A DNA stretch of 64,000 nucleotides from Escherichia coli (GTDB lineage: Bacteria; Pseudomonadota; Gammaproteobacteria; Enterobacterales; Enterobacteriaceae). Shown here one piece after another: positions 15,001 to 18,000 of the stretch. The stretch is from assembly GCF_016026235.1 (NCBI RefSeq), contig NZ_CP065614.1; one strand, given 5' to 3'. How positions within the stretch are numbered: the first letter of the stretch is position 1; the number at the start of each line of letters is the position of its first letter. The position numbers were made by a program.

Positions 15001-18000
15001 GCTCGTTTTGCGCCAGATGAGGAAGTCACTGCATTTTCTGTCTGCGACATCTCGCCTCCTCAATACTCAAACAGGGATCGTTTCGCAGAGGATACTACAG
15101 TTTTTTGAAATCAGCGACTTGAGAATTGTGACGAAGATCTGTGTTGGCGCACAAATCAACGGGGATTACTGTCGTTTAATGTGATTTAAACTGTGAAATA
15201 GTATGGTTTTCAGTTATGGAAACGCCGGGAGCGGGGAAAACTTGCTTTTTCCCGTTTCCGGGGTTGGACAACTGAGCAACGCGAAGGCGTCAGCTACGAT
15301 GTTCCGGGGACTGCTGATCAGCCCCTGTTGTATTCAGCCATTCTCCGGTCATCTGCAGCAGTTTTCTGGCATCGTGGCTTCTGAGCAACGGAATACCAGC
15401 CTGCCTCAGAACCTCTTCCAGAAGAATATCCCGGCGTCTGCGTTCCGGTCGTAAATGGCTGGCATCATCCAGCTCTACTGCTGCAACAATACTGAACGAA
15501 CGCCGCTCAACGATAACCACATCAACATGCCACTGAGACACCATCCTGAATAACTGCCACCACTGGCGTGATCGTGGCCGGATATTCCCGTTCAGCTGGA
15601 CGATATCCGCGACCCGTACCTGCGGACACAGATACCACCGCTTAAAATCAGCGGTGTGCGGGTTGAACGTCCAGGGCTCACCCGTGCACTGGAAATACTT
15701 CGTGAAGGCGACACACTGGTTGTCTGGAAGCTCGATCGTCTGGGGCGTAGCGTAAAACAGCTTGTTGATATGGTTGGTGAACTGCACAAACAAGGTATTC
15801 AGTTCAAAAGTCTCACAGACGCTATTGATACAGGAACACCGGCGGGGCGTTTCTTTTTTCATGTGATGGCCAGCCTTGCAGAGATGGAGCGAGAGTTGAT
15901 CATCGAACGTACCCGGGCCGGGCTTGATGCAGCAAAGCAACTCGGCCGTAAAGGTGGGCGAAAACCCAAAATGACCAGTAGCAAAATTGAATCGGCTAAA
16001 AAACTATTAGCCAGCGGTATCCCTCCCAGAGACGTAGCTAAAGATCTCGGTGTTTCCGTACCAACGCTGTATCGCTGGTTGCCAGCATCAAAAAATTCTT
16101 AGAGCACATTCAGGAAATTACGGTTTTCATGCTCCACAAATAGTGAAACCGTAAGTTTCTGTTCAAATGCTCCCGCTGGTCCCGCTTCATATCCACAATT
16201 CTGAACAGTCCTTTCATAAAACTGACTTCCCTTTCTGTCAGCAGCGTCTTCTGACGTTGCCAGCATTCACCGCTGGACAGTATTCGCTCTGCATCACCGG
16301 TCCGTATACCTGCCGCATGCAATTGCATCAGCAAAGGAGAATGCTGATTTACACTTCTGAGGATAATCCGGATAAGTAACGCTGCAATAATCAGAACAAT
16401 GAGAATAAAAATAATCAACTTCATTATTTATCTGCTCCTGGCAATTAATTATGCTGAGTTATTACCTTACATATTTCCATATCTCTTTTGGTATCCTGTC
16501 ATATAACTTTCCGGTGATTAACTCCGCTAACCGGTGGTCTGCTGCTGAATTAAATGATTCACGTTCACTGTTTGATAAACTGTCTCTGTTTTTATGAATA
16601 ATTTTTTCCAGCGTATTGACTGATGAACATCGCCGTAACTGATACAGCCATTCCTGTTTTGTTTTTGCCATTTTTATTCCCGCTGAGAACAGATGAATGA
16701 TAAGATTGCCATCGCTTTATTTACGGCGTCTCCATATCCAGGGGGGAACCGGATCAGCATCTGACCAGAGCCCACGTTTTTGTTGTCTGGCTTCGTTCTG
16801 AAGGACAGGCAGCACGGGATCTGTGTTGTACTGCTCATATACCCAGGCAGCCCCGGCCCGAACCATAAACTGATTAATATTCATTCCGTCTGGTGCATAA
16901 ACCTGCCCGAGAATACGACCATAGCGATCTCGCTGAAAATATGTGACGGTAACCGTTTTTCCTGCAACCAGTGATTTCATCATGTCCGTTGACCACCGAC
17001 CATAATCCTGTTTCTTTTCCGGTGCATCAATATTTACCAGCCTGATCCGCACCGCCTTCAGTGAGTCCATTACCTCGATGGTATCACCGTCCAGTACACG
17101 AATAACCCGTCCATGAATATCTGCAGACAATACCGGCCATGAAAAGATAAATAATACCAGTGGAATATATTTCCTCATGTTATTCTCCATATCAGATAAA
17201 TGGCACCTGTATTTCAGGCATCCTGAATATTGCAGCACACATTGAACAACACCTTATTTTGTGAAATTAATCACAAAATATAAAAAATCGACTTAATGCG
17301 GAAAAGACTCTGTGCTACTCAGAACTGTCCGGTCATACTGCCCGACCGGATATTAAGAAGCAAATCACATAAACTCCTTTCAGCCTTCTGACTCCTGGAG
17401 TAATGAAGGCTGCTTTTTTCGTTACACCCTTCCCCGGCAGCGCCGGTGGCAGTGTTCAGCCCTTTTCCGGGCAAACTGCTGCCAGTCTGTCCTGGGCGCA
17501 ACACCGGCAGCCCGTCGCCATGCTTCTGCCGCTTCCATCCAGCGTCCACTGACTTCCAGAATAACGGCCCGCCCGCCGGCACGCTGGTAACGCCAGACCT
17601 GGCCGTTCCGTGAACTGTTTCTGAATCCATTCATTTTCCTGTCCCCCTTTAGTTGTCAGTATTATTGTGATAAATAATTCAGTGGACTGGCTTCCTTTCG
17701 GGTTCGGAAGTTATTTCCTTTTAAGCCTTATTTCCCTGCCTCCTCTCTCTGGGGAGGCTTTTTTTATTTCTCATCAAGCACGGCCTGAAGTTCTGCCTTT
17801 ATCCTGTTCTGGCGACGAATTTTCGCCAGACGCGCTCCCGCATACGCTTCCTCCTCCTGAGAAATATGCTCCGTCACATACCCTTCCGTGTCATACCGGC
17901 AGGCACCGGCTTTCATGGCACACAGATAGCTTTCTGAACGGGTGATGGCCTTCAGCGCCCTGCGCAGTTTTTTATGCGAGAGCGGGATATTCCGCTGCGC

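Follow-up and report, generated by a model that had tools for sequence, protein, structure and literature searches.

The DNA analysed here is a stretch of 64,000 bp from Escherichia coli, called the window in the following. Positions 13635 to 17238 belong to the replication and leading end of an F-like plasmid backbone. The locus studied lies between the replication control gene copB/repA2 and hha and consists of the two halves of a gene encoding a DUF2726 protein, separated by an insert of 539 bp (15644-16182) that splits the gene at codon 81. Within the insert are the last 152 codons of a resolvase gene, tnpR, then about 40 non-coding bp and, at the end, a perfect 38-bp terminal inverted repeat; two copies of the pentamer CGCTT flank the insert. 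The features are collected in Table 1.

Table 1. Features at the interrupted DUF2726 locus and in the adjoining backbone (positions in the window).
Feature	Position	Strand	Remarks
repA1	13635-14504	-	backbone gene
copB/repA2 (replication control)	14793-15050	-	240 bp from the DUF2726 and resolvase fragments
216-aa chimeric ORF (spurious)	15290-15940	-	junction 15643/15644 lies inside the ORF; Pfam match only in residues 102-190
DUF2726 gene, 3' half	15290-15643	-	last base of codon 81, codons 82-196, stop
Target-site duplication CGCTT, left copy	15639-15643		single CGCTT in the L001 empty site ACCACCGCTTCATATCC
tnpR, 5'-truncated serine recombinase	15644-16102	+	codons 34-185 and stop
Transposon subterminal non-coding stretch	16103-16144	+	94% identical to the matching stretch of L005
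104-aa ORF	16110-16424	-	81 N-terminal DUF2726 residues, the frame continuing into the terminal repeat
38-bp Tn3-family terminal inverted repeat, GGACCAGCGGGAGCATTTGAACAGAAACTTACGGTTTC	16145-16182	-	matches the ends of the L005 element
DUF2726 gene, 5' half	16183-16424	-	codons 1-80 and the first two bases of codon 81
Target-site duplication CGCTT, right copy	16183-16187		from comparison with the L001 empty site
hha	16462-16671	-	backbone gene
Staphylococcal-nuclease homologue	16717-17238	-	followed by finO and traX, also on the minus strand

The interrupted backbone gene

The host locus is a conserved IncF plasmid backbone gene for a 196-amino-acid DUF2726 protein. The region matches 4,707 plasmid records, nearly all of which span 657 bp where the window spans 1,201 bp and carry one annotated 196-aa 'DUF2726 domain-containing protein' at the intact site. 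An example is pNDM-d2e9 (record L001). Window positions 14983-15643 align to L001 2884-3544 with 99.7% identity and positions 16182-17297 to L001 3539-4654, with 97.8% identity from L001 3539 onwards. The two flanks are contiguous at this empty site and overlap there by the bases present twice in the window. Excision in silico of 15644-16187, that is, of the insert and one CGCTT copy, gives an ORF of 196 amino acids identical to WP_000766816.1 in 196 of 196 positions.

The intact protein matches the Pfam DUF2726 profile (PF10881) at profile positions 2-110 over residues 59-170. This is the only domain of the protein, and it is the domain itself that is cut by the insertion at codon 81. The window has no complete domain in one frame; one is obtained only after the excision in silico. 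The match found in the minus-strand ORF 15290-15940 (E=3.9e-18) covers residues 102-190 only, corresponding to profile positions 24-110 of 126, while the N-terminal piece, which includes the hydrophobic N-terminal segment encoded within the 5' half, has no Pfam family above threshold. DUF2726 weakly resembles the restriction-endonuclease-like Pfam family MTES_1575, below the cutoff of that family, and no PADLOC or NCBIfam match indicated a role in a defence system. No sigma-70-like promoter was found in 15100-16700, where shuffled sequences average 2.4, and no evidence was found for expression of either fragment. The suggestion in the first-pass annotation that the C-terminal piece is expressed from an internal start and acts as a stand-alone nuclease-related domain finds no support: no such promoter was found in the region, and the piece is without the hydrophobic segment and the first ~23 profile positions.

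Truncated recombinase and chimeric reading frames

The plus-strand ORF 15656-16102 matches the Pfam Resolvase profile (E=4.1e-33) at profile positions 48-144 of 145. The C-terminal helix-turn-helix is present (HTH_7, E=1.1e-12, residues 101-144), whereas the catalytic N-terminal domain is missing, and with it the nucleophilic serine of the YARVST motif. Homology to the recombinase reaches back in the same frame 12 nt beyond the GTG at 15656 and begins at 15644. The first-pass annotation had placed a C-terminal DUF2726 piece and a 5'-truncated serine recombinase back to back on opposite strands, which the Pfam matches to DUF2726 and Resolvase bear out. The remnants do adjoin, but the gap of about 30 bp that had been put between them disappears, since the recombinase homology extends to a direct junction at 15643/15644. 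The 3' untranslated stretch, the terminal repeat, the second CGCTT and the 5' half of the DUF2726 gene had been missed.

The long minus-strand ORF had rightly been regarded as an accident of an open frame. Its first 99 residues are antisense to tnpR and are fused to the C-terminal half of DUF2726. No full-length homologue of this 216-aa ORF is needed, because the true N-terminus of DUF2726 lies 544 bp away.

At the same allele in plasmid pCFSAN029787_01 (NZ_CP011417.1 117106-118240) three partial pseudogenes are already flagged by RefSeq, labelled as DUF2726 missing the N-terminus, recombinase missing the N-terminus and DUF2726 missing the C-terminus. This annotation names no terminal repeat, target duplication, source transposon or mechanism. 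In Shigella dysenteriae NZ_CP119451.1 (L003 3485-4003, equal to window 15584-16102) PGAP calls an intact 172-aa 'recombinase family protein', WP_315700202.1, which is a chimeric annotation artefact because its first 20 residues come from the antisense of the DUF2726 fragment. The 216-aa ORF, the 104-aa ORF and the 172-aa 'recombinase family protein' are all chimeras and should not be treated as proteins.

Both DUF2726 halves and the tnpR piece are dead. The tnpR piece has lost its catalytic serine together with its promoter/res region, and DUF2726 is split within its domain. Less likely, and speculative, is that the surviving TnpR piece, with its dimer-helix region and helix-turn-helix, is expressed and binds the res sites of incoming relatives.

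The insert and its source transposon

On alignment to a complete copy, the insert is identified as the extreme right end of a Tn3-family transposon of 4,873 bp. The complete element is found in Klebsiella pneumoniae plasmid pCAV1344-40 (NZ_CP011620.1 4968-9840; L005 1667-6539) and consists of the left repeat, tnpA (986 aa), a gene for a 340-aa TPR protein, tnpR (185 aa) and the right repeat, flanked by the 5-bp duplication TGGAT. Its transposase passes the NCBIfam model transpos_Tn3 (756.8 bits, cutoff 500) and matches Pfam DDE_Tnp_Tn3. Complete copies of the transposon are rare: 2 were found among 72,556 plasmids. The gene for the TPR-repeat protein, a passenger, lies at positions 4883-5905 in both L005 and L004 and is named 'shiA' in a Serratia record.

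Compared with the last 540 bp of the complete element (positions 4334-4873), the insert shows 94.4% identity. The 538 bases queried (window 15644-16181) gave 94.4% identity to pCAV1344-40 and 97.4% to a Serratia plasmid. At the amino acid level the tnpR piece is 96.7% identical to residues 34-185 of the 185-aa TnpR. The 38-bp repeat agrees with the right repeat of the complete element in every position and with the left repeat in 37 of 38. When up to 3 mismatches are allowed, the window contains this one match, against 0 expected by chance, and no second, inverted repeat was found at that threshold. The same repeat ends 'Tn3 family transposase' remnants in Shigella boydii plasmids, where the last 36-38 bp of the insert match. 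The pCAV1344-40 transposon and the insert thus have the terminal repeat, tnpR and the length of the duplication in common.

Missing from the window are tnpA, the TPR gene and the interval that separates the two (presumably the res site), as well as codons 1-33 of tnpR and the left repeat. A tblastn search of the window found no Tn3-type DDE transposase, and in the window together with 150 kb of pCFSAN029787_01 no part of the transposon was found besides the 539-540-bp piece. The window holds a transposon fragment, not a transposon.

A hairpin is present at both ends of the transposon (window 16111-16161; L005 1690-1735), in which the inner part of the repeat, AAACCGTAAG..., pairs with its subterminal complement. 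In the window the arms of this inverted repeat are 16111-16126, in the subterminal stretch, and 16146-16161, in the terminal repeat, and the RNA fold has -23.6 kcal/mol (z=-3.08). The end hairpins could be terminators that block read-through, or sites for the transposase or a host factor.

Junctions and target-site duplication

The limits of the insert at 16182 and of the duplication CGCTT follow from the complete element, because its 38-bp repeats and the 5-bp TGGAT fix the boundaries. The T at 15643 can be assigned to the target or to the transposon, and the alternative description is a 4-bp duplication with an insert of 540 bp. One junction lies exactly at the terminal repeat. The other lies at a non-repeat point within tnpR, in DNA that is contiguous with the inner side of the repeat.

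The left end of the insert matches the terminal repeat in 10 of 38 positions without gaps, and its anchored gapped score is reached by ~20% of the positions in the transposon and ~19% of those in the window. These values bear on the idea that an already truncated element moved as a miniature transposon with two ends, the transposase pairing the right repeat with a weak surrogate end in tnpR. Two hexamers, CAGCGG and TTGAAC, are shared by the left end and the terminal repeat, offset by 1 and 3 nt, which is what such a surrogate end might look like, but the overall similarity is not above background and the 539-bp unit has no second copy elsewhere, so this origin appears improbable. A cryptic left repeat was accordingly rejected, the hexamers being suggestive by eye and not significant, as was a multicopy miniature element, with the 539-bp unit at one locus only. 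The other full-coverage matches of the unit are intact or longer tnpR contexts. Tn3-derived inverted-repeat miniature elements (TIMEs; PMC4133298) resemble the insert in being small, non-autonomous, derived from the Tn3 family and flanked by a 5-bp duplication. They differ from it in having two terminal repeats and several copies, against one repeat and a single locus.

Distribution of the insertion allele

The insertion allele was found in ~10 plasmids of PLSDB, in six complete E. coli genomes and in one derivative, in every case on an invasion plasmid (pINV) of enteroinvasive E. coli (EIEC) or Shigella dysenteriae. The pINV plasmid pCFSAN029787_01, onto which the window maps collinearly but with rearrangements, carries the mxi-spa type III secretion system, icsA and virA.

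The gaps and rearrangements between the window and pCFSAN029787_01 lie near 22.9-26.4 kb and 37.7-42.1 kb of the window. The F-type transfer region (window ~22900-60000, as mapped on pCFSAN029787_01) is heavily decayed in this plasmid family. The near-identical pCFSAN029787_01 has ISEc60 in traL, IS600 in trbF and IS21 and IS91 elements in traI, as well as frameshifts in traB, traF and trbG. The minus-strand ORF at 18379-19590, with 403 aa, is longer than the traX of related records, to which the annotation gives 747 bp. It probably continues upstream across the 3' end of traI and does not represent a genuinely longer protein.

Sequences related to the transposon were seen elsewhere in these plasmids, and in the EIEC pINV records 4 places match it. 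S. boydii pSB4_227, also a pINV plasmid, has a 354-bp remnant (L006 5684-6037) with 94% identity to the transposon, which comprises the 3' end of tnpA and the left repeat and is truncated by an IS91-family element. In the pINV plasmid of E. coli O121 EIEC, NZ_CP119442.1 (L008 ~3759-5027), IS600 is inserted inside the 38-bp terminal repeat at the equivalent of window 16157/16158. The nested position means that the transposon fragment is older than the IS600 insertion.

Origin of the insert

The first-pass annotation took the back-to-back remnants for the scar of a deleted resolution or cargo module beside the replicon. The fragments do lie 240 bp from copB/repA2, and one of them is a truncated resolvase. 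The backbone is, however, collinear and complete on both sides; compared with pNDM-d2e9 nothing is missing from it, and the difference is a clean 539-bp insertion with a 5-bp duplication, excision of which exactly restores the DUF2726 gene. The recombinase is likewise not a resolution gene of the plasmid but the tnpR of a Tn3-family transposon, accompanied by the terminal inverted repeat of that transposon, and the uninterrupted site is found in thousands of IncF plasmids. Loss of a plasmid module is thus hardly credible as the origin of the locus.

The exact repeat end, the arbitrary internal end and the 5-bp duplication together fit one-ended transposition. We consider that the insert arose in this way with a probability of roughly 0.65, judging the mechanism by its end product only. 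A Tn3-family transposase, supplied by a complete copy then in the cell, would have attacked the DUF2726 target using the single right repeat. Replication would have copied inward from that repeat and stopped after 539 bp, and the free end would have been joined across the other side of the 5-bp staggered cut in the target. A single event of this kind may have taken place in the ancestor of the EIEC and Shigella dysenteriae pINV plasmids and have been inherited since. The source of the transposase is hypothetical, as no complete copy of the transposon is present in the window; the remnant with tnpA and the left repeat in pSB4_227 makes a complete copy that supplied it in an ancestral pINV plausible.

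One-ended transposition has precedents within the family. According to PMC4133298, where Avila et al. 1988 is cited, one-ended transposition occurs with some transposons of the Tn3 family, the other endpoint being random. The one-ended products of Tn21 and Tn1721 (Avila et al. 1984/1988, Motsch et al. 1985) also have an exact 38-bp repeat end, an arbitrary other end inward of the repeat and the 5-bp duplication typical of the family. They differ from the insert in being made in the laboratory, while the insert is natural, fixed and 539 bp long, with a transposase source that is no longer visible. The laboratory products obtained by Motsch and co-workers in 1985 reportedly carry 5-bp duplications. 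Such products are usually long, equal to or longer than the donor plasmid, and a product of 539 bp would be unusually short, which counts against the mechanism.

The same end product could have been formed in two steps, if a complete 4.9-kb transposon had inserted by both ends, making the CGCTT duplication, and a later internal deletion had taken out the left repeat and all that follows it up to codon 33 of tnpR. Truncated mobile elements and pseudogenes abound in the pINV plasmids, other copies of the same transposon are truncated as well (L004, L006 and many further records), and in one lineage the right repeat of this very fragment was later struck by IS600. The deletion would, however, need an endpoint that coincides to the nucleotide with the outer boundary of the left repeat and leaves the duplication intact, one position among thousands, and the other truncations of the transposon are bounded by IS elements or without duplications, unlike the insert. 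No reaction driven by a transposase or a resolvase is known to us in which flanking DNA becomes joined directly to the interior of a transposon, which also speaks against a later deletion. Nor is there a trace of the full element at this site. With the left repeat at this site the junction would read ACCACCGCTT-GGACCAGCGGGAGC, and a query joining flank and left repeat was covered to at least 80% in 0 of 72,556 plasmids and in 0 of the E. coli genomes, 5,426 in number. Metagenome contigs, scanned for exact matches, gave 0 for such a junction and 0 also for the real junction, used as a positive control, so that this collection was without power. A two-step origin is unlikely on this evidence, and one-ended transposition is preferred.

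Implications

The locus is a case of ordinary plasmid gene decay, one more pseudogene in the backbone of the EIEC and Shigella invasion plasmids. It carries little weight for biology at large, and the pieces are already flagged in RefSeq. The insertion is a clean and rare lineage marker, present in ~10 PLSDB plasmids as against thousands with the intact site, and it links the pINV backbones of EIEC and S. dysenteriae.

One-ended transposition is known almost only from laboratory constructs of the 1980s. If our reading is true, the insert would be a textbook-clear natural footprint of it. We lean slightly towards the view that the insert is a natural, fixed one-ended product. If so, some of the many plasmid-borne Tn3-family remnants regarded as 'truncated' may have been incomplete from the start and not be deletion debris. 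Such remnants would then be recognisable by a solo terminal repeat and a 5-bp duplication around an otherwise intact target.
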